Source of the DNA: Promethearchaeia archaeon
Lineage (GTDB): Archaea > Asgardarchaeota > Lokiarchaeia > Sigyniarchaeales > SOKP01
Direction: 5' to 3'
DNA length: 31,840 bases
Assembly (NCBI GenBank): GCA_046497275.1
Contig: JAWOFX010000098.1
Span: 1 to 31,840, forward strand
In this document: in pieces, positions 14,987 through 31,718 of the stretch
How the letters are laid out: each line of letters opens with the position of its first letter
Position numbering within the stretch: the first letter of the stretch is position 1
Notes under the pieces: model-generated
The model's database searches: none
Told to the model about the DNA's origin: nothing
Seen by the model: only the letters and a program-made list of their open reading frames with translations
Program-made: the position numbers and the translations under genes

Positions 14987-15601
14987 TTAGTTTTCTTCAT
15001 TTTTATTTTTTAATAGAGACGATAAAGTATTCATTTGAACGGACAAGCTAACGTCTGCGCGAGTTTTTTCGATTAAATTTCTTGCAGTATCAGTCTTGTG
15101 TCGTAAATCCTTGGTTAATCCACTTGGATAATCCAATGAAAATAAATGTGAATAAATTTCATCCATTTTTTCCAAAATTTCATCTATGTCCTCAACGTTG
15201 GAATTTCTAATATTATCCAAAACATATCTTCTCAGTTCTCCTACAACATCCGCTAAACCAAGTGCATAATTTAATGCATCTACTTTTAATTCTGTATGGT
15301 AAGGGATTTCTTTATTATTAATTAATGAATAAAGAACAATCGCTTCAGTATATTCTTGTTCAGGAGTTTTAAGATATTTATAAAAATAGCCTGGACTCTT
15401 ATTTACCAGATTTCTCATTATATCCAAGTTTTGTTCAATCTTCTCTATCTTCTCACTATACTTATCAAATTGGGCTCTATGTATCATTTTTATTGCATCA
15501 CTACATTCTCTAATAATTTTTCGCGATATTCTCAAAATTTCTTCTCTATCCTCATCTAATTCATCTAGATCATCTGTGACCTTCTCAAAATTCTTTTCCA
15601 C
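14987..15601 (-). CDS. Translin/TRAX (C3PO) family RNase
   Basis: QEYTEA, YALGLADVVGELRRY, LRHKTD; acidic catalytic residues retained. GTG start. Confidence 0.9.
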   Translation of the reverse strand: MEKNFEKVTDDLDELDEDREEILRISRKIIRECSDAIKMIHRAQFDKYSEKIEKIEQNLDIMRNLVNKSPGYFYKYLKTPEQEYTEAIVLYSLINNKEIPYHTELKVDALNYALGLADVVGELRRYVLDNIRNSNVEDIDEILEKMDEIYSHLFSLDYPSGLTKDLRHKTDTARNLIEKTRADVSLSVQMNTLSSLLKNKNEEN

Positions 15602-18433: not shown

Positions 18434-18955
18434 TTAGATATTTTTAAAACTTTCTAAACAAGATCTCGCAATATTTTGAAACGCTTTTTCAACATTTTCG
18501 CCTGTCTTGGCAGATGTTTCCATATATTCACATTTCAAACGATCTGCTAAATCTCTAGCCTCAGATTCATCTATTTTTCTTTCCAAATCTATCTTATTTC
18601 CTAGAAGAATCATTGGAATATTTTTTTTCACGGATTTTTTTATTGAAGAGACCCATCCAGGTATTTTTAGTAATGATTGTGGTTCAGTAACATCATAAAC
18701 TCCCAAAGCTCCGTTACTTCCTTTAAAATAAATTGATCTTAATTTCTGAAATGCTGTCTGTCCGGCTATATCCCAAATTAATAATCTAATATCATTTCCT
18801 TCAATTATTAAATCTTTTATCAGAAAATTAGAGCCGATAGTCTTTTTTAGATCGGCTGTAAAAGTATCTTTGATGAATCTTAATAGAAGGGAAGTTTTCC
18901 CGACAAATGAACTTCCGAACAATGTAATTTTAAATTTGTAGCTTTTTTTCGAAAT
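18434..18955 (-). CDS. Rab-like small GTPase; start extended upstream of the tracked TTG (18922) to a probable ATT/ATA
   Basis: G1 GSSFVGKTS, G2 TIGSNF, G3 WDIAGQ, G4 NKID, G5 TSAK. The upstream in-frame sequence reads ISKKSYKFKITL (beta1 strand). Confidence 0.93.
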   Translation of the reverse strand: MSKKSYKFKITLFGSSFVGKTSLLLRFIKDTFTADLKKTIGSNFLIKDLIIEGNDIRLLIWDIAGQTAFQKLRSIYFKGSNGALGVYDVTEPQSLLKIPGWVSSIKKSVKKNIPMILLGNKIDLERKIDESEARDLADRLKCEYMETSAKTGENVEKAFQNIARSCLESFKNI

Positions 18956-19077
18956 TTTTATAACCCTTTTAATTTATTGAATTACTCGAATAATTTACAC
19001 ATTATATTTCTTATATATAACTAACAAATATTTATATATTTTTAAAAAATTTGAAAGTTTCTATACTAATCTAATTA

Positions 19078-20457
19078 TTATGATACTGAGTCTTTTTTAT
19101 TTTTTTTATGCTTTCCTTTTATAAATTCTTCAGTTTTTTGAATTCCTTCTTTTGTCTTCTTATAGACTTTTTTAGAGGTTTTTGTGATCTCTTCATCTGT
19201 TTTTTGTGTGATTTTTCCGATTTGAATCATTAACCACTCAGGTGACCCAACACCATTGAAATACTTAATCCATACGTACATTAAGAATCCAAGAAAGCCA
19301 GTAAAAGCAATATATGTAAATGCAAAAAACCATATTTCAAATGCTCTATAGAAAAGGCCAAGAAATACAAATAATATTAAAAACAGAGATAAAGATATCT
19401 TACCATAAAATATGACCATTTTGATGAATAAGTTATCTTTCTTTTTAATATCGATATAATAGAGAGCGATCCCCATGATAAATATGGCAAATCCAATATT
19501 ATACCATAAATTTGATGAATAAGCACGAATTAAAAACGCGGGCATTCCGGGATAACGTCCAAGAGGGATAAATGGATTTGTATTCGCACTTGTAAATAAT
19601 CCAACATGAGGATAAAGAGCTGGATCTACAGTATAAGGGGTTTCTAATCTAAATCCAAAAAAGATTCCCGCACATATTAAAAAAATACCTGAATAGAAAA
19701 ACATTTTAAATAATTTTCTAAGGGCTTCATCAGTCCCGATGATCATGGCTTCATAAAGATATTCTCCAAAGATAGTTGATATAAAACATATCGAGATATA
19801 GGGAAGAACCGGTAATTGAGGAACTGGTGAATTGATGATGAAATCAATAATTGAATAAAAAATATTATCTCCTCGATTATAATAAAAAAATTCACGTATA
19901 TTAGGTCCATATTGAAGGAGGATAACACCTATAATCACTCGGGGGATTTTTCCAACTTTCAATGCGTAATAAGAAAAGATTTGTGAAAATCCAATAAAAA
20001 AGAGTATATTCCATCCCCAAAAATTTAGAGGAAAAATAGTTCCCCCGCCATAGAAGAGAATATTGAAAACCCCCCCAATTAATATTATTGAGAGTCCTCT
20101 CGAAAAAATTCGATCACGAATTGCGTTTTGAGAGAGTTGATTTTCTTTTCTTTTAATGGTAAAAATAACAGAGAGAGCAGAAAGAAAAACGAACATAGTT
20201 GGTCCTAAAATATCTAAAAATGCGAACACTATCCCCCAAAGAAAAAGCCAATCTGTATTAAACCATGGTTCTGCATAATGTGCTAAAATAATAAAAATTA
20301 TAGAAAATCCTTTAACAAAATCGATTGAATTTAGTCTTTTTGGAGATTCGATATTTTTTATTTCATCTATTGTTATTTCTTCTCTCAAATAATTAAGCAA
20401 ATCGGGAGATTCTATATCTTTCTTTTCTATTACTATAGTATCTTCTCTATTAGCCAT
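19078..20457 (-). CDS. DUF1624 / HGSNAT-like polytopic membrane acyltransferase
   Basis: RLNSIDFVKGFSIIFIILAH N-terminal motif; ~10-11 TM segments; charged Lys-rich tail. Confidence 0.8.
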   Translation of the reverse strand: MANREDTIVIEKKDIESPDLLNYLREEITIDEIKNIESPKRLNSIDFVKGFSIIFIILAHYAEPWFNTDWLFLWGIVFAFLDILGPTMFVFLSALSVIFTIKRKENQLSQNAIRDRIFSRGLSIILIGGVFNILFYGGGTIFPLNFWGWNILFFIGFSQIFSYYALKVGKIPRVIIGVILLQYGPNIREFFYYNRGDNIFYSIIDFIINSPVPQLPVLPYISICFISTIFGEYLYEAMIIGTDEALRKLFKMFFYSGIFLICAGIFFGFRLETPYTVDPALYPHVGLFTSANTNPFIPLGRYPGMPAFLIRAYSSNLWYNIGFAIFIMGIALYYIDIKKKDNLFIKMVIFYGKISLSLFLILFVFLGLFYRAFEIWFFAFTYIAFTGFLGFLMYVWIKYFNGVGSPEWLMIQIGKITQKTDEEITKTSKKVYKKTKEGIQKTEEFIKGKHKKNKKDSVS

Positions 20458-20573
20458 TTTACGTTTATCCTTGTTTTTTCAAAAAATAAAAATTTATTAT
20501 TACTATATAGTATATTTTAATTGATGTTTTATTTGAATTTTTTTATTTAAAATTAGTACTATATCATATTGCT

Positions 20574-20972
20574 ATGAATGATAAAAAATACCAAAATTTT
20601 AATATCTTAGGGATTATTGGTTCTATATTAATAATTATTTCAGAATTTATACCTTGGTTTTCATCTATATCTCTTTTTGAATACTACCTCATAACTATTT
20701 ATTCTGCTCTCCAAGATGCTTTTTTATATCTTTTTCCTCTTATGAGTGGAATTATATGTCTTGCTGGCAATATTTTAATGTTTTTTGACCCCAAGCATCG
20801 GTTAAGATTTGGTATATTGAATATAATTGGATTAGGGTTCCTTTTTATATTCTTATTACAATTCATTCCCATACATCCATTATCATATATAATAAACCAT
20901 ATAGGGATTTATATCTTTTTTACCGGCTTTATCTTAGTAATTTTAAATCTAATTAATAAATTAATAATATAA
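20574..20972 (+). CDS. Small membrane protein (~4 TM)
   Basis: Four hydrophobic stretches; followed by the next gene on the same strand after 21 bp. Confidence 0.8.
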   Translation: MNDKKYQNFNILGIIGSILIIISEFIPWFSSISLFEYYLITIYSALQDAFLYLFPLMSGIICLAGNILMFFDPKHRLRFGILNIIGLGFLFIFLLQFIPIHPLSYIINHIGIYIFFTGFILVILNLINKLII

Positions 20973-20993
20973 ACGTATAATTTTGATGTATAA

Positions 20994-21884
20994 TTGAAAA
21001 ATAGAGATAAAGAGAACGGAGTTTCAGTAGAAAACGGAGATATGAATAACATCGAATCAGATTTCTATTATGCTTTAGGTCATGATATACGTAGAAGTAT
21101 AATAGAAATCATTGGAAATTCTGGATTTACATCGTTTACGAAACTTAAAAAGGAACTTCAAGTTTCCACAGGTACAATTTATCATCATCTTGATACATTA
21201 TCCAAACTAATTAAACAAAAAAAGAATAAAAAATATTATTTGACAGATTTAGGAGAATTAGCATATTCTTCTTTAGAAAATAATAAAAGAGAATTTGAAT
21301 TGTCCGAAAATTCTAATAAAGGATATAAATTTCCAATTATCACAATTATTTCTTCATTTTTTTCTAAAATAATTGACCCAGAAAAAAAAATTAATACTAT
21401 ATATATCAGTATTTTTTCGATCCTAATTCTGATTCTTGGTATTATTTTTAGTGAAATAAATCAATTTTATTCTATACTTCTTTTCTTTAGACAAATTGGT
21501 TCCATAACTCTGCCCTTTTTACCTAGTTTGACCTATATTTTGAACTTTATTATATTCTTTTTTTTGACTGAATTGTTATCGAGATTATTTTATAGAAAGA
21601 AAAAAAATATTATCCCTCTATTATTAACTTTTCCTGTAGTCTTATTGCCTATGGACTTTTATCTAATAATTCATTCTATATTTACATTCCTTGGGATTAC
21701 AGAATTAGCTTTGATCTATTTTATTGATAAAATATTGTTGGTTTTTTTTCAAGCTATTTCAATTTTATTCCTAACCTATATTTTAGGGGAGATCAAGGAA
21801 TTAAGATTGGAAAATGGATTTATAATCTCTTTATTAATCCATCTTACTGGCTTTACGATCTTGATTCTTTTTATTTCATTTTAA
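20994..21884 (+). CDS. ArsR-type wHTH fused to a multi-TM (Yip1-like) domain
   Basis: YYALGHDIRRSII...SFTKLKKELQVSTGTIYHHLDTL...KYYLTDLGE, followed by ~5 TM helices. Confidence 0.8.
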   Translation: MKNRDKENGVSVENGDMNNIESDFYYALGHDIRRSIIEIIGNSGFTSFTKLKKELQVSTGTIYHHLDTLSKLIKQKKNKKYYLTDLGELAYSSLENNKREFELSENSNKGYKFPIITIISSFFSKIIDPEKKINTIYISIFSILILILGIIFSEINQFYSILLFFRQIGSITLPFLPSLTYILNFIIFFFLTELLSRLFYRKKKNIIPLLLTFPVVLLPMDFYLIIHSIFTFLGITELALIYFIDKILLVFFQAISILFLTYILGEIKELRLENGFIISLLIHLTGFTILILFISF

Positions 21885-23176
21885 TTTGATTTTATTATAA
21901 AATCTTTTTTTTGTAAATAAGATTTGATAGAAGCTATCTTTTCTCTTGATTTAGTCAAGCTTTTTTCTTTAGTAGCTACAAAACATGAATATTGGTTTCG
22001 GTTATCATCAAAAGCGATTGGAGGTGTAATAAATTCAGGAAATTTTTTTTCCATTTCAGGGATTAGTTCTTCTTTCAACTTTTTTTCAAAGAGTGGTCCA
22101 CTATAAATCAATTCTATTCTTGTAAATATAGAGGTACCTATTATCCTCACTTTATAATTTTGATTAAAACCACTCAAATTCATTAAAAACTTTACGGGAT
22201 TTTTAGTTAAGATCTTTCTAATTCCAATGTAAGAAGTGGTCAGGCGTGGATTGATTTCAAGAAAAAAAATTTCTGTATCTTTTAGGATGAAATCGATTCC
22301 GTATAGACCTCCAAATTCGGTAAATTTTACTTTTTTTAGTATCTTCTCTAGCAATCGTTTTTTTTCTTCAAATTTTTCAATCGGAGTTTCTCCGCCAAGA
22401 TATTCAGAGGCTTTATTGGTTTCATTAATTTGTATATTTTGGGTATTAATTGATAATATAATAGGTTTTATTCTTTTCTCTTTTTTAATCGAATTTAATA
22501 ATGATATACTTGAATTTTTTCCCCTAATAAACTTTTGAATTATGTAATTTCTTCCTTTTTCAAAACTTGATTCAAAATTATCTAGTAATCTATTTAATTC
22601 AGATTCGTTTTCTATTTTAATAATAGATTCTGCTCCCACACCATCATCAGGTTTAATGATTATTGGGGCTCCTATTTGTTTAAATTTATCTATGATATAT
22701 TTTTTTAAGGGGTATTCATTTTTCAGAGGAATTAAATAGGTTTCAGGGGTTTTTAAGTGATGGGATAAAAAATACTTATACGTTTTGTATTTAGAAGAAG
22801 CTATCTCTATTCCTTTTAAATTAACACTTAATAATTTCTTATTGTTTTTAATTACTATTTGGCTTAATTCCGATAAAATATTTGAAAATTCTGGTGCAAT
22901 AATAAAACAATACTCACTTTCTTTTACTCGAGATAAAAATTCTTTTTTATAATCATCCTCAGATTCAACATATTTGATTGAATCTATGTCTAATATTTCT
23001 GATAAGAATCTTATCCGATTATCTAAAAGGGAGATAACTTCAAGATCCAAATATTTGAAATCATCTACAATTGAACGCAACATTCCAAAACCTTCACAAA
23101 AAAGTGAAGATGGAATTTTAATATTATTAAAACCTCCACCAGAAATGAATTCATAAACAAATATTTTACTACACAT
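21881..23176 (-). CDS. ATP-grasp ligase, MfnD (tyramine-glutamate ligase)/COG1821-like, with C-terminal extension
   Basis: KIFVYEFISGGG, EGFGML, IIAPE, IIKPDDGVGA, QKFIRG, YLGGETP, YGIDF, EINPRLTTSYIG. Start set at the first ATG (23176). Confidence 0.85.
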   Translation of the reverse strand: MCSKIFVYEFISGGGFNNIKIPSSLFCEGFGMLRSIVDDFKYLDLEVISLLDNRIRFLSEILDIDSIKYVESEDDYKKEFLSRVKESEYCFIIAPEFSNILSELSQIVIKNNKKLLSVNLKGIEIASSKYKTYKYFLSHHLKTPETYLIPLKNEYPLKKYIIDKFKQIGAPIIIKPDDGVGAESIIKIENESELNRLLDNFESSFEKGRNYIIQKFIRGKNSSISLLNSIKKEKRIKPIILSINTQNIQINETNKASEYLGGETPIEKFEEKKRLLEKILKKVKFTEFGGLYGIDFILKDTEIFFLEINPRLTTSYIGIRKILTKNPVKFLMNLSGFNQNYKVRIIGTSIFTRIELIYSGPLFEKKLKEELIPEMEKKFPEFITPPIAFDDNRNQYSCFVATKEKSLTKSREKIASIKSYLQKKDFIIKSN

Positions 23177-23281
23177 AAGTAATCCAATATTTCTCAATAG
23201 ACATTAATAACAAAAATTAATGAATGATGAATTAATTACTTAACTTAATTTACTTAAAAAACAATTAATTGTGAATAAAAA

Positions 23282-24520
23282 ATGGAATACTTTCCTAATG
23301 AAGAAATTCTCCAAAGAATTCGCTATTTACATTTTAAAATAAAGCATTTGGAGGAGAATCTTGAAAAATACGAGGAAGAAGTCGATCTAGATTCTTTGAA
23401 TTATATATTAGAATATACTCGAATATTAAATATAAATTATGGTAATGATATGCATAAGCCTATCCTTGAGAAGCTTGATATAACTCAAACATTCTACGAC
23501 CCAGAATTTAATGAGGAGATAGAAATAAAAGATATAATCTTTGAATGTGCAAGAGTGTTATGGGTATTAGCGCGAGCTTATTCTTATTTATCTGAATCCT
23601 ATGAGGAGGAAGAGGAATGGCAGAATGCTATTGTCTCTATGGTTGAATGTAGTAAAATGTATAAAGCTTCTGCATATTTCAGTGCTGCTTCAATCTTTCA
23701 AGATAAAACCGGAGAAGTTTTATCTTCCGAGAATCTAGAATTAAAATCAGAAGAAGCACGTATTATTGCTCAAGGAATAGCAGCTACTAGAGAAGAAAAT
23801 AAAAATAATATTTATTTTGCTTCTAAATTATATGCAGGTCTCTCAGCACTTTCTAAAAGATTATTTTATTTAAAAAAACATGAAGAGAAAAGAAAACAAC
23901 AAATCAGAGCACAATTTCATTATGATATGGGTAGGGCATGTTTCTTAAAGGCAAAAGCATCGGTTGAATCATCAATAACGCCAATAAATGAAGAAAAAGT
24001 ATTAAAATTGCAACAAAAAGCTAATTTCTACTATAATAAGGCAGAAGAGATTTGGAAGAGTATGATTAATAATTTAAAGGATATCTCTCCTGAGGAAAAA
24101 GAAACAATCGAAAATAATTTGATGGTTGTCAGAGAAAATATAAAAGAAAATGATGTGGATACCTTGGAATATGAAGAGATCAAAAGAATTCAGGATCCTG
24201 AACCCGTAGTAATCATTCCAGAAAACTTGGCCCCCTTTGTTCCTAAATCAACAGTGTATCTAACAAAATTTGTCCCTAAAGATGTAAATGATAAAAGATT
24301 TAGAAAATTTAAAAAGAAAAAATTAGAAAAAAAGATACCATATTCTAGGAAGGAAAAACTTTTAGATAAGAAAGCAGGGATATTAAGGACAATAAATGAA
24401 CTCAAAGTTTTGAAAGAGGCTAATGAAATAGACTTAGAAAAATTCGCAGACTTGATGGAAAGATATTCTACTAAGATACAGATGATAAATACAGCTATAG
24501 AAAAGCTAGGGAAGAAATAA
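23282..24520 (+). CDS. Helical-repeat protein; candidate BRO1-like domain + C-terminal steadiness-box-like hairpin
   Basis: Clearly coding (412 aa). TFYD-x10-DIIFECARVLWVLA resembles the BRO1 core; C-terminal TINEL-x8-IDLEKF resembles the Vps23/TSG101 SB. The domain calls are inference. Confidence 0.6.
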   Translation: MEYFPNEEILQRIRYLHFKIKHLEENLEKYEEEVDLDSLNYILEYTRILNINYGNDMHKPILEKLDITQTFYDPEFNEEIEIKDIIFECARVLWVLARAYSYLSESYEEEEEWQNAIVSMVECSKMYKASAYFSAASIFQDKTGEVLSSENLELKSEEARIIAQGIAATREENKNNIYFASKLYAGLSALSKRLFYLKKHEEKRKQQIRAQFHYDMGRACFLKAKASVESSITPINEEKVLKLQQKANFYYNKAEEIWKSMINNLKDISPEEKETIENNLMVVRENIKENDVDTLEYEEIKRIQDPEPVVIIPENLAPFVPKSTVYLTKFVPKDVNDKRFRKFKKKKLEKKIPYSRKEKLLDKKAGILRTINELKVLKEANEIDLEKFADLMERYSTKIQMINTAIEKLGKK

Positions 24521-28289: not shown

Positions 28290-29471
28290 ATGCCCAAACT
28301 TAAAAACAAGCATAATAATAAGAAGACATCTTATTATGAAAAATCATTAGAAAAACCCGAACTCTTGCAGTTCCTCAAAGGAAAAGAAAAGAAAAAAAAA
28401 TCCAATGGTATAAAATTAATTCTTAAGTGGAAAGCATATAAAAGAATAATAGGATATAGCTATCGATATGCAAATAATAGATTAAGCGAAACTAAATGGA
28501 GAGAAGTATATGGAATATTAATAGGTTCTATTGATGATAATAAGGAGATTATAAAAGATGCAGTACCTATGGTTGTAGGAGACCGAGCGGGAGTTCAATA
28601 TGAAAGTAAACAATATGTCGATATGGCCCAGATTGATGCATCAACTCATGAAAGAGCCATTAGAGATAAAAAAAATGATTTTATTATTGGATGGTGGCAT
28701 ACTCATCCTGGTTTTGGTTTTTTCTTCTCCCCAATTGATTGTCTCACGCAATTAGGATATCAAATTCCCAATTCTAGAGCAATTGGTTTAGTTTTTGACC
28801 ATACTAAGAAAAAAGAAAAAAATCTCGGAATTGCTGCAATACAACTCAGGGAACCTGATAAAGGGATACGTTCCGCTTATGATATAGTTGAATTAGATTA
28901 TGAACTGAAAATCGAAGAAATGGAAGAAAAAAGTAATAAAATAATTGAAAAAATAAAACAAAATATGGAGGAAATTGAAGGAAGACTAAGTTACTGTAAA
29001 AATGTTATAGGACAAAAAGCAATTACTAAATTACAAGAAAGATTCGGCTTAATTCCTGCTTTTGATGATGATTTTGCAAAGATTAATGAGGAGGATAAAC
29101 CATATATTTGGGATGATCTTTCCGAGACAAAAGAAGCTAAATTTCCAGAATTTCGACAAGAAATTGAAAATCAAATAAAAACCAATACAGAAGTTCTAAA
29201 GAAACTCAAAGCAAAAGAAGAGATGGAGGAATTTAATAAACAACAGGAAAAATTCAAGAAAAAAATACTTAAACAATTAGAAGAACCAAAAAAATTTATA
29301 GAAGCAATATTAGAAGATTTTAAAGATCAATTAAAAGTAGTTTTCCCATATTATGATTATCTTGATACCAGTGAAAGAAAATTACTTGAGTTTATTGATC
29401 AGAAAATTCATCAATATCATGATATATTAGACATGCTTGAATCTAAGGCTCAATTTGAAATAGAAGATTAA
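28290..29471 (+). CDS. MPN+/JAMM metalloprotease, Rpn11/CSN5-like, with long C-terminal helical region
   Basis: Catalytic E in WREVYGILIG; intact H-x-H-x7-S-x2-D in GWWHTHPGFGFFFSPID, followed by TQ and RAIGLVFD. Confidence 0.9.
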   Translation: MPKLKNKHNNKKTSYYEKSLEKPELLQFLKGKEKKKKSNGIKLILKWKAYKRIIGYSYRYANNRLSETKWREVYGILIGSIDDNKEIIKDAVPMVVGDRAGVQYESKQYVDMAQIDASTHERAIRDKKNDFIIGWWHTHPGFGFFFSPIDCLTQLGYQIPNSRAIGLVFDHTKKKEKNLGIAAIQLREPDKGIRSAYDIVELDYELKIEEMEEKSNKIIEKIKQNMEEIEGRLSYCKNVIGQKAITKLQERFGLIPAFDDDFAKINEEDKPYIWDDLSETKEAKFPEFRQEIENQIKTNTEVLKKLKAKEEMEEFNKQQEKFKKKILKQLEEPKKFIEAILEDFKDQLKVVFPYYDYLDTSERKLLEFIDQKIHQYHDILDMLESKAQFEIED

Positions 29472-29489: not shown

Positions 29490-29750
29490 AAAAAAATAAA
29501 AAAGATATATATTACATTACGCATATGCATTTTTAAGAGCGCACATCTCTGTAACCAACAACACGTTCGTGAATGCGGTATTAGATAAAACTACTAACAA
29601 ACTTTACACATAAGCAGCACGACTCATTTTCAAAAATTTACTTGGACTCATTTGATGCCGCTGTGGTTTGATGTTACTTATTCCCACTTTATGATTCAAC
29701 TTTAATTCTTTGGTGGGAATTCCGTTTGAAGGGCAAAACCTAATCGGCGG
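29490..29750 (-). ncRNA. Candidate omega-RNA/reRNA of the TnpB-like nuclease (boundaries approximate)
   Basis: Locally GC-richer, hairpin-forming 3' flank (29518-29580) followed by a T-run on the - strand. TnpB guide RNAs are known to overlap the gene 3' end and the transposon right end. Confidence 0.4.
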
Positions 29751-31718
29751 GGTGGTGATAAATTTGTTAACCCTCTGCTTTGCTTGATTGGGTAGGGATC
29801 GGCGAGGATCGGAAATTAAGCGTAAATTGTAGGCGATGGCTTTATGGGAAAAGAGCTTTGGATGTTTTTTTCTGCCGATATTAGCCGCATCGTTGATATC
29901 TCCGTGAATGATTTTTCCGTTCCTTGTCCGAAACAGTCCATTATGTTTTACTCCGTTCTGGGTAAATCTGCGTAATCCAGCATACTCTCCGCTTGGTTTT
30001 TTCCCAATTGATTCATCGTCGATATATGAGCATTTGCTGGTATACCATTCGGGTGTATAGTCCACATTTATCCCAAAATAAATCGCTTCTTGCTGAATTC
30101 TCTCGAACATTTGGTTAAATGGCAATGAAACGAATAAATCTCTGGTTAATTTGTTGAGTTTAACAGTATCGCTCTGCCATCCCTTGTTATAACCGAACGT
30201 AATTGTCCCTACTCCATAGTATAGGCAATAATACATTAACTTTTTGGCAATCTTGTTAATAGCGTCCCGCTTTACTCTGTTATATTTGTCCCATAATTCA
30301 TCAATCTTTAATTTGACAGATGCTAAGTATTTCCGTAAATCCCGAACTGACCATCCAGAAATTGTTTCCAAAATCCTAATCTTACGATCTCTTTTACTCT
30401 GTAAATAGCGAAAATACTTATGCAAGAGAGAATTCTTTTCACGTGGGGCAATCTCCATCAAGATAATCTTTCTGAGCTTATTGAAAATGCCTTTATAGAC
30501 TCTTTTTCCATCCCTTTCAGCAAGTTTCTTGAAATTGTCCCAATTCATATTTTTTGCCACCCTAAAAAATGATTTGGAACGAAAACATTTATGAAAAAAA
30601 TCCTTTTCTGTTAGTCCCGCTTTATTCACCTTAGAAAGTTCAAAAATTCTTTTAAAAATATACAAAACCATTCTTCTCAAATTCTCAAATTCGTCGTGAT
30701 GGGTGTGAATTCGAGATTCGATAATTGATTCTAATGGTTGAATAAATTTATTTTTTTCATATCGTTCTAGCATATCGGCAATTACATCAGCCCGACGCTG
30801 TAGTGGGGGAACTTCATTATTTATTCTGTAATTAAACTTCTTCAACACTGAGCCGTTAAATATGGGAAATCTCGCACCAAAATTGTTGAAAATTGTGAGG
30901 AAATTATTTACTCCGAAGTCGATAGAAATGGCTCTGTTAGGGTTCTGCTCGTATCTATTGAGATCAAGACCATATTCTCTGGCTCGTTGTGGTTTCGTTT
31001 TGATATAATGGATGTTAAAAGAGTAATTTTTCCCTTTTGGTATGATCTCCACAAACCCACCGTTCTTGAACAATTGAGATAGCACTTTTGTTCTGACTCG
31101 TATTGGGGGGATCAAATGATCGTGTGAGGGTGGCACATACATATAACACGTACACCGATTATTGTTAATCGCGTTTCTAAGGCTCTCTATATTTTTCCTA
31201 TGTTCAAGTTTCTGCTTTGTATAGATTAATTTCCATTTCCCTTGTCGCTCTCCCTTTATTTTTTTACCAATGTAGCGGGGTAGACCAGGTCGTGATGGTT
31301 TTTGTCTGCGTCGATTTTCGGCAGCGTCCTTCCATTTTTCAAGGTCTTGATAATATTTTTTTATTAAACCAAAATGACTCAAAAAATTCTCGCAAACAGC
31401 TAAAACTATCTGTTGAGCACAAGGAGAATATCCTATGTCCTTGTAAGATTCCATAAATTTTATTATCGTTGGAACAGTACTACCTAAGGCTCGTAATCCA
31501 TTTTCAAAAATTCCGTTCAAAATCTCTACAGCGGCGTTCTTTGTGTCAGTTGGATAATCGGATTCTTTTATGGTTTTGTGATATTTACCCGCTATACTTT
31601 TTCGATATAGGTTTTTTTTCAATGTCGTTAGTAGTATGATAAAAGTAATATTGCCGCAAAAAGTACAAAGTATCATTCGCGAGTGCTCGAGAGCGGTTAG
31701 CAAGACGATCCAACCCAT
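29604..31718 (-). CDS. tnpB: Large TnpB/Cas12-like RuvC nuclease, main frame (the first ~30 tracked aa are probably not real)
   Basis: RuvC-I ISIDFGVNN (D267), RuvC-II ITFGYNKGWQ with alternative E in PEWYTSKCS (E557), RuvC-III IHGDINDAANI (D607). Confidence 0.88.
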   Translation of the reverse strand: MGWIVLLTALEHSRMILCTFCGNITFIILLTTLKKNLYRKSIAGKYHKTIKESDYPTDTKNAAVEILNGIFENGLRALGSTVPTIIKFMESYKDIGYSPCAQQIVLAVCENFLSHFGLIKKYYQDLEKWKDAAENRRRQKPSRPGLPRYIGKKIKGERQGKWKLIYTKQKLEHRKNIESLRNAINNNRCTCYMYVPPSHDHLIPPIRVRTKVLSQLFKNGGFVEIIPKGKNYSFNIHYIKTKPQRAREYGLDLNRYEQNPNRAISIDFGVNNFLTIFNNFGARFPIFNGSVLKKFNYRINNEVPPLQRRADVIADMLERYEKNKFIQPLESIIESRIHTHHDEFENLRRMVLYIFKRIFELSKVNKAGLTEKDFFHKCFRSKSFFRVAKNMNWDNFKKLAERDGKRVYKGIFNKLRKIILMEIAPREKNSLLHKYFRYLQSKRDRKIRILETISGWSVRDLRKYLASVKLKIDELWDKYNRVKRDAINKIAKKLMYYCLYYGVGTITFGYNKGWQSDTVKLNKLTRDLFVSLPFNQMFERIQQEAIYFGINVDYTPEWYTSKCSYIDDESIGKKPSGEYAGLRRFTQNGVKHNGLFRTRNGKIIHGDINDAANIGRKKHPKLFSHKAIAYNLRLISDPRRSLPNQAKQRVNKFITTPPIRFCPSNGIPTKELKLNHKVGISNIKPQRHQMSPSKFLKMSRAAYV

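Follow-up and report, generated by a model that had tools for sequence, protein, structure and literature searches.

In eukaryotes, ESCRT-III is entered by two routes, one of which is provided by the BRO1 proteins (Bro1, ALIX and HD-PTP), and binding ESCRT-III is overwhelmingly what the BRO1 fold does there. BRO1 has so far been counted among the ESCRT parts that are without a convincing archaeal ancestor. The steadiness box (SB), a helical hairpin of 55-60 residues, is found in ESCRT-I (yeast Vps23/Stp22, human TSG101 headpiece) and in the Asgard UEV-CC-SB and Znr_CC_PH_SB proteins (PMC10936438). In ESCRT-I it assembles with Vps28 and a third subunit to form a headpiece of three hairpins.

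For the Asgard archaea, Makarova et al. 2024, whose survey is the most thorough, reported that orthologues of Bro1/Alix were not identifiable (PMC10936438); the same study describes SB-containing multidomain proteins with TPR repeats, and the BRO1-SB family presented here may have been hidden under that label. Homologues of Bro1 were described by Eme et al. 2023 for Hod-, Njord- and Thorarchaeia (PMC10307638, Supplementary section 4.4.8). These are best-Pfam-domain calls on four short proteins, which come from Heimdall-, Njord- and Thorarchaeia and are listed under PF18097; two of the four are shown with full sequences of approximately 75-85 aa (PMC10307638); none of the set is Lokiarchaeial, and none falls in the BRO1-SB family. 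No description of this family was found in the literature searched.

The window (the whole stretch of DNA that was analysed, 31,840 nucleotides) is AT-rich, with a GC content of approximately 24-37%, and belongs to a 3.85-Mb genome that is 98.9% complete. At coordinates 23282-24520 on the plus strand it carries a complete ORF of 412 aa plus stop codon, encoding the BRO1-SB protein P0001, which is subdivided as follows.

23282..24520, plus strand: BRO1-SB gene P0001 (ORF; at least 671 homologues; 54/54 genomes of the family)
23282..24229, plus strand: BRO1-fold domain, aa 1-316 (AF2 pLDDT mostly 80-96, VIA, Foldseek, ESM Atlas)
23489..23524, plus strand: beta-hairpin, aa 70-81, with strands 70-73 and 78-81 (DSSP on the AF2 model)
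23618..23872, plus strand: helices H5-H7, aa 113-197, with the top conservation of the family; candidate ligand-binding face
24188..24247, plus strand: extended motif IQDPEPxxxxPENLAPFVPK, aa 303-322, near-invariant, at the end of, or just past, the BRO1 domain
24248..24337, plus strand: basic linker, aa 323-352, predicted to be disordered (pLDDT, Lys/Arg-rich sequence)
24338..24514, plus strand: C-terminal helical hairpin, probably of the SB type, aa 353-411 (hhalign, SB profile, VIA)

A template-free AF2 model, for which a 30-sequence family alignment served as input, has a pLDDT of 83.8 and a pTM of 0.71. It is helical throughout, except for the beta-hairpin 70-73/78-81 and a disordered stretch (320-353, with the linker region showing pLDDT <50), and ends in a terminal hairpin (356-411). 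When this model was compared with the PDB using Foldseek, matches 1 to 21 were all BRO1 chains (E 3e-6 to 5e-4), with Bro1 (1zb1) in first place at E 3e-6, followed by HD-PTP, BROX and ALIX; designed repeat proteins ranked below all 21 of them. The comparison was repeated independently of Foldseek with VIA-align on 48,161 chains, and ranks 1-5 were again occupied by the BRO1 representatives 1zb1 (Bro1), 3rau (HD-PTP), 2oew/2xs1 (ALIX) and 3um3 (BROX), with Z values for the five chains of 21.7, 21.4, 21.1, 21.0 and 20.4. These alignments comprise 268-289 residues at an rmsd of 3.4-4.7 A, and on the model they run from residue 1/5 to residue 315/316. A shape search of the ESM Atlas resulted in a TM of 0.67 to a eukaryotic cluster of ALIX-like BRO1+V-domain proteins and of 0.54/0.60 to a plant BRO1 cluster, and the nearest named clusters by language-model features were eukaryotic BRO1 and PalC (score 0.85), which we take as a lead only.

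At the sequence level, P0001 gives no match to PF03097 in Pfam even at E<=10 and no match in NCBIfam, and no BRO1 chain was returned by PDB sequence searches with P0001, with the profiles A1, A2 and A4, or with the orthologue P0151. Two sub-threshold Pfam matches of P0001 were rejected: one to Profilin (E 0.0017), which is spurious, the stretch being all-helical, and one to MIT (E 0.27), which reflects TPR-like helical hairpins. P0151, which is found by tblastn with P0001 (E 4e-18, 25% identical, same gene order) and matches the family profile with E 2.9e-32, does match PF03097, with E 3.2e-8 and 33.3 bits, i.e. 1.8 bits short of the cut-off of 35.1; the match spans aa 9-182 on profile positions 33-208, and P0151 is labelled PF03097 in precomputed tables. 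P0151 is considered an orthologue from a deeply separated lineage because its neighbourhood is shared while the flanking genes have diverged, the housekeeping genes flanking its locus being only 26-67% identical to those of the window. The match of P0180 to PF03097 (E 0.0015) is probably register-shifted and was not relied upon, and a search of 5.8 billion proteins with the A4 profile, built on a distant clade, returned only four members and no eukaryote.

From these combined results, the protein is very likely a homologue of BRO1. The preliminary description, made from the letters of the sequence, had proposed a BRO1 domain here on the basis of several strings, all of which are present at the places it gave (TFYDPEF...VLWVLA at aa 70-97, nt 23489-23572; ARAYSYLS at 97-104; YKASAYF at 127-133; IIAQG at 161-165; ASKLY at 180-184). 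The domain itself is borne out by the five BRO1 chains at the top of the VIA ranking, the 21 at the top of the Foldseek ranking, the beta-hairpin and the PF03097 match of the orthologue; the contrary outcome it had named, a generic TPR/SNAP solenoid without hairpin or profile match, was not seen. The likeness to HD-PTP that was read by eye from aa 70-97 does not rise above chance in the raw sequence. In the model this segment opens with the hairpin, followed by the long helix, and the domain does start at aa 1 but extends to approximately aa 316 (nt 24229), slightly past the end proposed at 24170.

Similar to the eukaryotic BRO1 domains (1ZB1; ALIX 2OEW, 2XS1 and 3C3O; HD-PTP 3RAU and 5CRU; BROX 3R9M, 3UM3 and 3ZXP), the modelled archaeal domain is a boomerang-shaped, TPR-like solenoid that superposes on these solved structures, and both have a beta-hairpin early on and an extended segment at the C-terminus. 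In BRO1 domains the hairpin stands before the long helix that bears the conserved Glu; the hairpin at aa 70-81 of the model, which we take to be at this canonical position, is followed by a helix at aa 85-109 (DSSP), with D84 and E88 invariant. The archaeal domain is only 10-15% identical to eukaryotic BRO1 and is shorter, with ~316 aa against ~360-390, and judging from the VIA ranges it is without roughly the first 20-35 residues of the eukaryotic domain. Also, the V domain, proline-rich region, PTP and CAAX modules of eukaryotic BRO1 proteins are absent, and an SB hairpin is found instead; an architecture in which BRO1 is joined to SB is not known in eukaryotes.

As in eukaryotic BRO1, conservation in the archaeal family is highest in the central helices: maxima in the family alignment A2 lie at aa 120-134, 150-164 and 180-194, on H5-H7, and the invariant residues of these helices include F133, E157, R160, Q164, G186, L187 and R193. 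Going by the VIA ranges only, H5-H7 face the middle of ALIX and would match in position its CHMP4 pocket, the concave hydrophobic site at which BRO1 domains bind the C-terminal helix of Snf7/CHMP4-type ESCRT-III. The extended motif IQDPEPxxxxPENLAPFVPK is invariant across 30 aligned Lokiarchaeial sequences, and P308, P313, E314 and P321 of this Pro-rich motif are unchanged even in orthologues that are 23% identical.

The C-terminal hairpin was compared separately. When genomes across the phylum were scanned, the C-terminal 60-70 residues on their own matched the C-termini of other Asgard proteins (E ~1e-6), namely Vps23-like UEV-coiled-coil-SB proteins encoded next to Vps28-like genes, Znr_PH_CC_SB proteins, of which two are encoded next to ESCRT-III genes, and one CDC48N-SB-zinc-ribbon protein; the hairpin aligns with these SB proteins without gaps. 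Compared by hhalign with the steadiness boxes of the Asgard Vps23-like and Znr_PH_CC_SB proteins, it scores 98.5% (E 1.7e-15, 57 columns), and an SB profile built without BRO1 proteins matches nt 24344-24511 of the window (E 2.5e-5). On the structural side, aa 350-412 superpose on the SB of yeast Vps23 (2caz/2f66/2p22) with a VIA Z of 9.6 and an rmsd of 1.2-1.9 A, CdvA also being among the fold matches, and the orthologue profile gives a sub-threshold sequence match to 2f66_A (E 0.6). The archaeal hairpin has the heptad pattern and the G/N-x-I turn in common with the ESCRT-I and Asgard SBs, from which it differs in being attached to BRO1, without the UEV or the long stalk coiled coil of Vps23. 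This is a helical hairpin of ~60 residues homologous to the SB of the Vps23/TSG101 type, and we assign the C-terminus to the SB type with good confidence. The same SB profile also matches three unrelated proteins encoded in this genome, one of them OST1-like, and family members give weak SHOCT-like matches, so the hairpin may be a broader, general oligomerisation module.

In a word-indexed search, at least 671 matches were obtained among 8,000 candidates scored; the 120 matches listed share 67-99% identity along their whole length, and each of them comes from a Lokiarchaeota/Promethearchaeota MAG and is annotated as 'hypothetical protein'. In the ESM Atlas, the archaeal cluster to which the protein belongs has been labelled automatically as 'putative BRO1 domain-containing protein'. 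Thirty relatives align almost gap-free with a mean column identity of 75%. When 1.84 billion representatives were searched exhaustively with the family profile, only 59 relatives were returned, comprising the 412-aa form, longer forms (510-770 aa) that have a helix-hairpin-helix (PF14520) at the N-terminus and a linker rich in Lys and Ser, the full-length proteins P0149, P0151 and P0153 (~400 aa, 23-24% identity), and the P0180 group (501 aa). The window's own genome (G000) encodes a second member, an HhH-BRO1-SB paralogue of 533 aa on contig C109 (L004:1432-3033, minus strand), which has 45% identity in its BRO1, motif and SB parts and differs by its N-terminal helix-hairpin-helix (PF14520) and long Lys/Ser-rich linker; only some genomes of the family carry this paralogue. 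One other Asgard family (4/5 genomes) encodes a relative of 511 aa whose C-terminus is different and rich in beta structure; the AF2 model of this relative has a pLDDT of 52.6.

As the preliminary description had supposed, the gene is located apart from any ESCRT operon: no ESCRT gene is present within the window, and ESCRT-IIIA with Vps4, ESCRT-IIIB and Vps28 are encoded on other contigs. ESCRT-IIIA adjoins Vps4. ESCRT-IIIB matches the PDB chain 9fn1_U ('Vps20/32/60-like', E 6e-83), and Znr_CC_PH_SB (L068:1429-3123) is located two genes away from it; the Vps28-like protein is encoded at L060:6437-7081. A canonical UEV-CC-SB Vps23 was not found in the genome with a UEV profile derived from Asgard Vps23-like proteins, which matched nothing but E2-like proteins and a zinc-finger protein that has three UEVs and no SB. 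Possible partners of the BRO1-SB protein in this genome are ESCRT-IIIB, ESCRT-IIIA with Vps4, the Vps28-like protein and Znr_CC_PH_SB. The tail of ESCRT-IIIB is conserved in an MPxVP segment, a DDLQYI segment and a terminal amphipathic helix; the DDLQYI segment differs in the sister family, in which BRO1-SB was not found, a comparison of two lineages that serves as a lead only. When BRO1 aa 1-325 were co-folded with the last 70 residues of ESCRT-IIIB, the score was 0.01, the mark being 0.32; this result counts neither way.

The comparisons presented above demonstrate the fold, the homology of both modules and the distribution of the family, and the reading that we favour, with moderate confidence, is that of an archaeal member of the BRO1 superfamily with an SB that would act as an ESCRT adaptor. 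By homology, the BRO1 domain may recruit ESCRT-III of the Snf7/CHMP4 type. Under the proposed mechanism, H5-H7 would bind an element in the C-terminal tail of ESCRT-IIIB (Snf7/CHMP4-type), or of ESCRT-IIIA, and the SB hairpin would dock into a hairpin bundle with the Vps28-like protein, Znr_CC_PH_SB and the HhH-BRO1-SB paralogue, by which an ESCRT-I-like recognition complex would be coupled directly to ESCRT-III nucleation. We put this bridging role forward tentatively, its chances being slightly short of even.

A BRO1 domain that is universally conserved in one Lokiarchaeial family would place the origin of this module before eukaryogenesis, and its fusion to an ESCRT-I assembly hairpin suggests how ESCRT-I and ALIX could originally have formed a single route. 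A further-reaching and rather doubtful version is that BRO1 is a built-in subunit of an ESCRT-I-like complex (Vps28-like protein, Znr_CC_PH_SB and BRO1-SB) that would recognise membrane or ubiquitin cargo and nucleate ESCRT-IIIB, with the HhH paralogue tethering it to DNA as CdvA does; if true, the eukaryotic ALIX/Bro1 and ESCRT-I routes would descend from one ancestral archaeal complex, and BRO1 would predate eukaryogenesis. The protein should be of interest to those working on ESCRT and on eukaryogenesis. In-vitro Asgard ESCRT-III systems exist already (PMC11804906, PMC9192718), and the BRO1-SB protein is a concrete reagent for asking what nucleates ESCRT-IIIB in vitro.

Rhophilins are BRO1-containing Rho effectors, and the surroundings of the gene bear on a role of this kind, in which a true BRO1 fold would act outside ESCRT as scaffold or effector of its neighbours (the Ras-like GTPase or the ATP-grasp ligase) and the hairpin would self-associate. 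The gene order Ras-like GTPase, small protein, wHTH, ATP-grasp (minus strand), BRO1-SB (plus strand) is conserved, and this block is kept around orthologues that are only 25% identical, including P0151. The gene for the MfnD-like ATP-grasp ligase is divergent from BRO1-SB in 72/76 genomes, i.e. in 72/72 of those in which it was detected, and this partner gene is also found beside distant BRO1-SB orthologues. A role outside ESCRT is also favoured by the SB-like hairpins on non-ESCRT proteins of the genome, by the distance to the ESCRT genes, and by the distribution: BRO1-SB was found neither in the five genomes sampled from the order's sister family (0/5) nor in most other sampled Asgard families, and ESCRT-IIIB is present in four checked genomes from two Asgard families in which BRO1-SB was not found. 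Against it stand the overwhelming use of the eukaryotic BRO1 fold for ESCRT-III binding and the specific likeness of the hairpin to the SBs of Vps23-like and Znr_PH_CC_SB proteins that are encoded beside Vps28 or ESCRT-III genes; moreover, the synteny may mirror no more than a conserved gene order, since the remaining neighbours are housekeeping genes. We consider a function outside ESCRT unlikely on balance. Two of the conserved neighbours were checked for likeness to ESCRT-II: a 296-aa protein was ruled out, being a widespread archaeal ArsR/DUF7347 wHTH protein, and a conserved 132-aa protein gave no clear relatives.

Homology to BRO1, on which the ESCRT-adaptor reading is built, has to be weighed against convergence, i.e. 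a generic TPR-like alpha-solenoid that resembles BRO1 in shape without being related to it. Such a solenoid would agree with the failure of P0001 to match BRO1 directly in Pfam or among PDB sequences, with the weak TPR and MIT matches seen among family members, and with the Z of approximately 14 that, according to the note of the VIA tool, helical repeat models often reach by chance. Since chance matches of helical repeats reach only this level, the gap between the five BRO1 chains (Z ~21) and the best other fold, NatC at Z 12.2, is meaningful, and the ESM Atlas shape search displays a similar gap between BRO1 (TM 0.67) and the best TPR cluster (TM 0.42). With the beta-hairpin, the PF03097 match of the orthologue (E 3e-8) and the BRO1 neighbours in language-model space added, convergence becomes very improbable.

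Least credible of all is a recent horizontal acquisition from a eukaryote in place of an archaeal BRO1 lineage, which would fit the narrow Asgard range (one Lokiarchaeial family, one family with the 511-aa form and four rare sequences) but conflicts with a sequence too diverged for a direct match to eukaryotic BRO1, with an archaeal architecture (Asgard-type SB, HhH paralogue), and with orthologues at 25% identity in the same neighbourhood, which argue for old vertical descent. Within its own range the family is constant, being encoded by every one of the 54 genomes sampled from the GTDB family to which the window belongs and, by pattern scan, in 122 species-level genomes. The BRO1-SB protein is under strong purifying selection: it is 67-69% identical between genome pairs whose ESCRT-IIIB is 64-78% identical.

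The BRO1-SB gene, which encodes a BRO1 domain followed by a PEN motif and a steadiness box (SB), and the gene of a predicted ATP-grasp ligase are transcribed divergently from a common intergenic region of 84 nt in the window. This divergent pair is found in 72 of the 76 species genomes, and the ATP-grasp gene is also the divergent neighbour of BRO1-SB orthologues at 25% identity. The closest NCBIfam model to the ATP-grasp protein is the MfnD tyramine-glutamate ligase, which it matches at 118 bits, below the model's cut-off of 400. Upstream of the pair lies a block (18434-22000) comprised of genes for a GTPase, a 132-aa protein and a winged helix-turn-helix (wHTH) protein, which is retained in deeply diverged Asgard lineages (loci L061 and L062).

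Genes of the window (coordinates, strand, product)
408-953, +, DOT1-like methyltransferase domain protein, eukaryote-signature type
14987-15601, -, Translin-family protein, eukaryote-signature type
18434-18922, -, Ras-family small GTPase, member of the conserved block
19078-20457, -, 459-aa ORF outside the conserved block, no match in a family search
20574-20972, +, 132-aa protein, member of the conserved block
20994-21884, +, ArsR/DUF7347 wHTH protein of 296 aa, member of the conserved block
21881-23197, -, predicted ATP-grasp ligase of 438 aa (PF02655 and PF18301)
28290-29471, +, JAB/MPN protein of 393 aa (PF01398)
29604-31718, -, TnpB-type protein of 704 aa, by domain content (OrfB_IS605 / Cas12f-like TNB domain)

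The JAB/MPN domain has a eukaryote-type deubiquitinase fold, and the protein carrying it has no NCBIfam name; the TnpB-type gene marks a mobile element at the end of the window.

Further BRO1-type and ESCRT-related proteins are encoded on other contigs of the source genome and in other Asgard genomes.

Genes outside the window (local coordinates, strand, product)
L004:1432-3033, -, HhH-BRO1-SB paralogue of 533 aa on contig C109 of the source genome, 45% identical to the BRO1-SB of the window
L024:404-1939 and L025:440-1972, both +, 511-aa protein of another Asgard family, matching the profile over its BRO1 part (E ~1e-20, aa 7-309)
L157:2958-4694, +, UEV/E2-like zinc-finger protein of 578 aa on contig C45 of the source genome, by domain detection
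L071:124-1695, +; L070:142-1680, +; L072:1483-2880, -, proteins with a C-terminal SB/SHOCT-like hairpin

In the paralogue, the BRO1 domain, PEN motif and SB are preceded by an N-terminal HhH module (PF14520-type) and a linker; many genomes of the family encode one or two relatives of 510-770 aa. At the C-terminus of the 511-aa protein, a beta-rich domain takes the place of the SB; with a pLDDT of 52.6, the AF2 model of this protein is too poor for fold comparison. The Asgard 'Bro1' entries in Eme et al. 2023 (PMC10307638, supplementary file 5) carry the accession PF18097, not PF03097, and the two sequences shown in full comprise ~75-85 residues; among the remaining ones, one resembles a Roadblock/LC7-type sequence by eye.

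In a comparison covering L026-L055 (ESCRT-IIIB tails) and L063-L065, the tail of ESCRT-IIIB, a proposed ligand of BRO1, shows conservation in three places: a MIM2-like MPxVP, then DDLQYI(S/P)E, and at the end a LxxEIEKLRKEL helix. The sister family, in which no BRO1-SB was found, has other residues in place of DDLQYI(S/P)E. On contig C41 of the source genome (L002:1429-1530), the conserved ESCRT-IIIB N-terminus lacks a canonical start codon: the reading frame begins directly after a TAA, and the conserved residues start at an ATC codon (L002:1435), ~30 codons upstream of the first TTG/ATG.

A canonical UEV-CC-SB Vps23 was not found in the source genome with the queries used. The 578-aa protein lacks an SB and ends in a Cys/His zinc finger; two UEV/E2-like domains are detected in it, one N-terminal and one around aa 430-505, and visual inspection suggests a possible third between them. 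C-terminal SB-like or SHOCT-like hairpins are not confined to BRO1-SB, since three other proteins end in one: a membrane protein resembling OST1/ribophorin, a long protein rich in Lys, Glu and Pro, and a protein of 466 aa whose linker is acidic.
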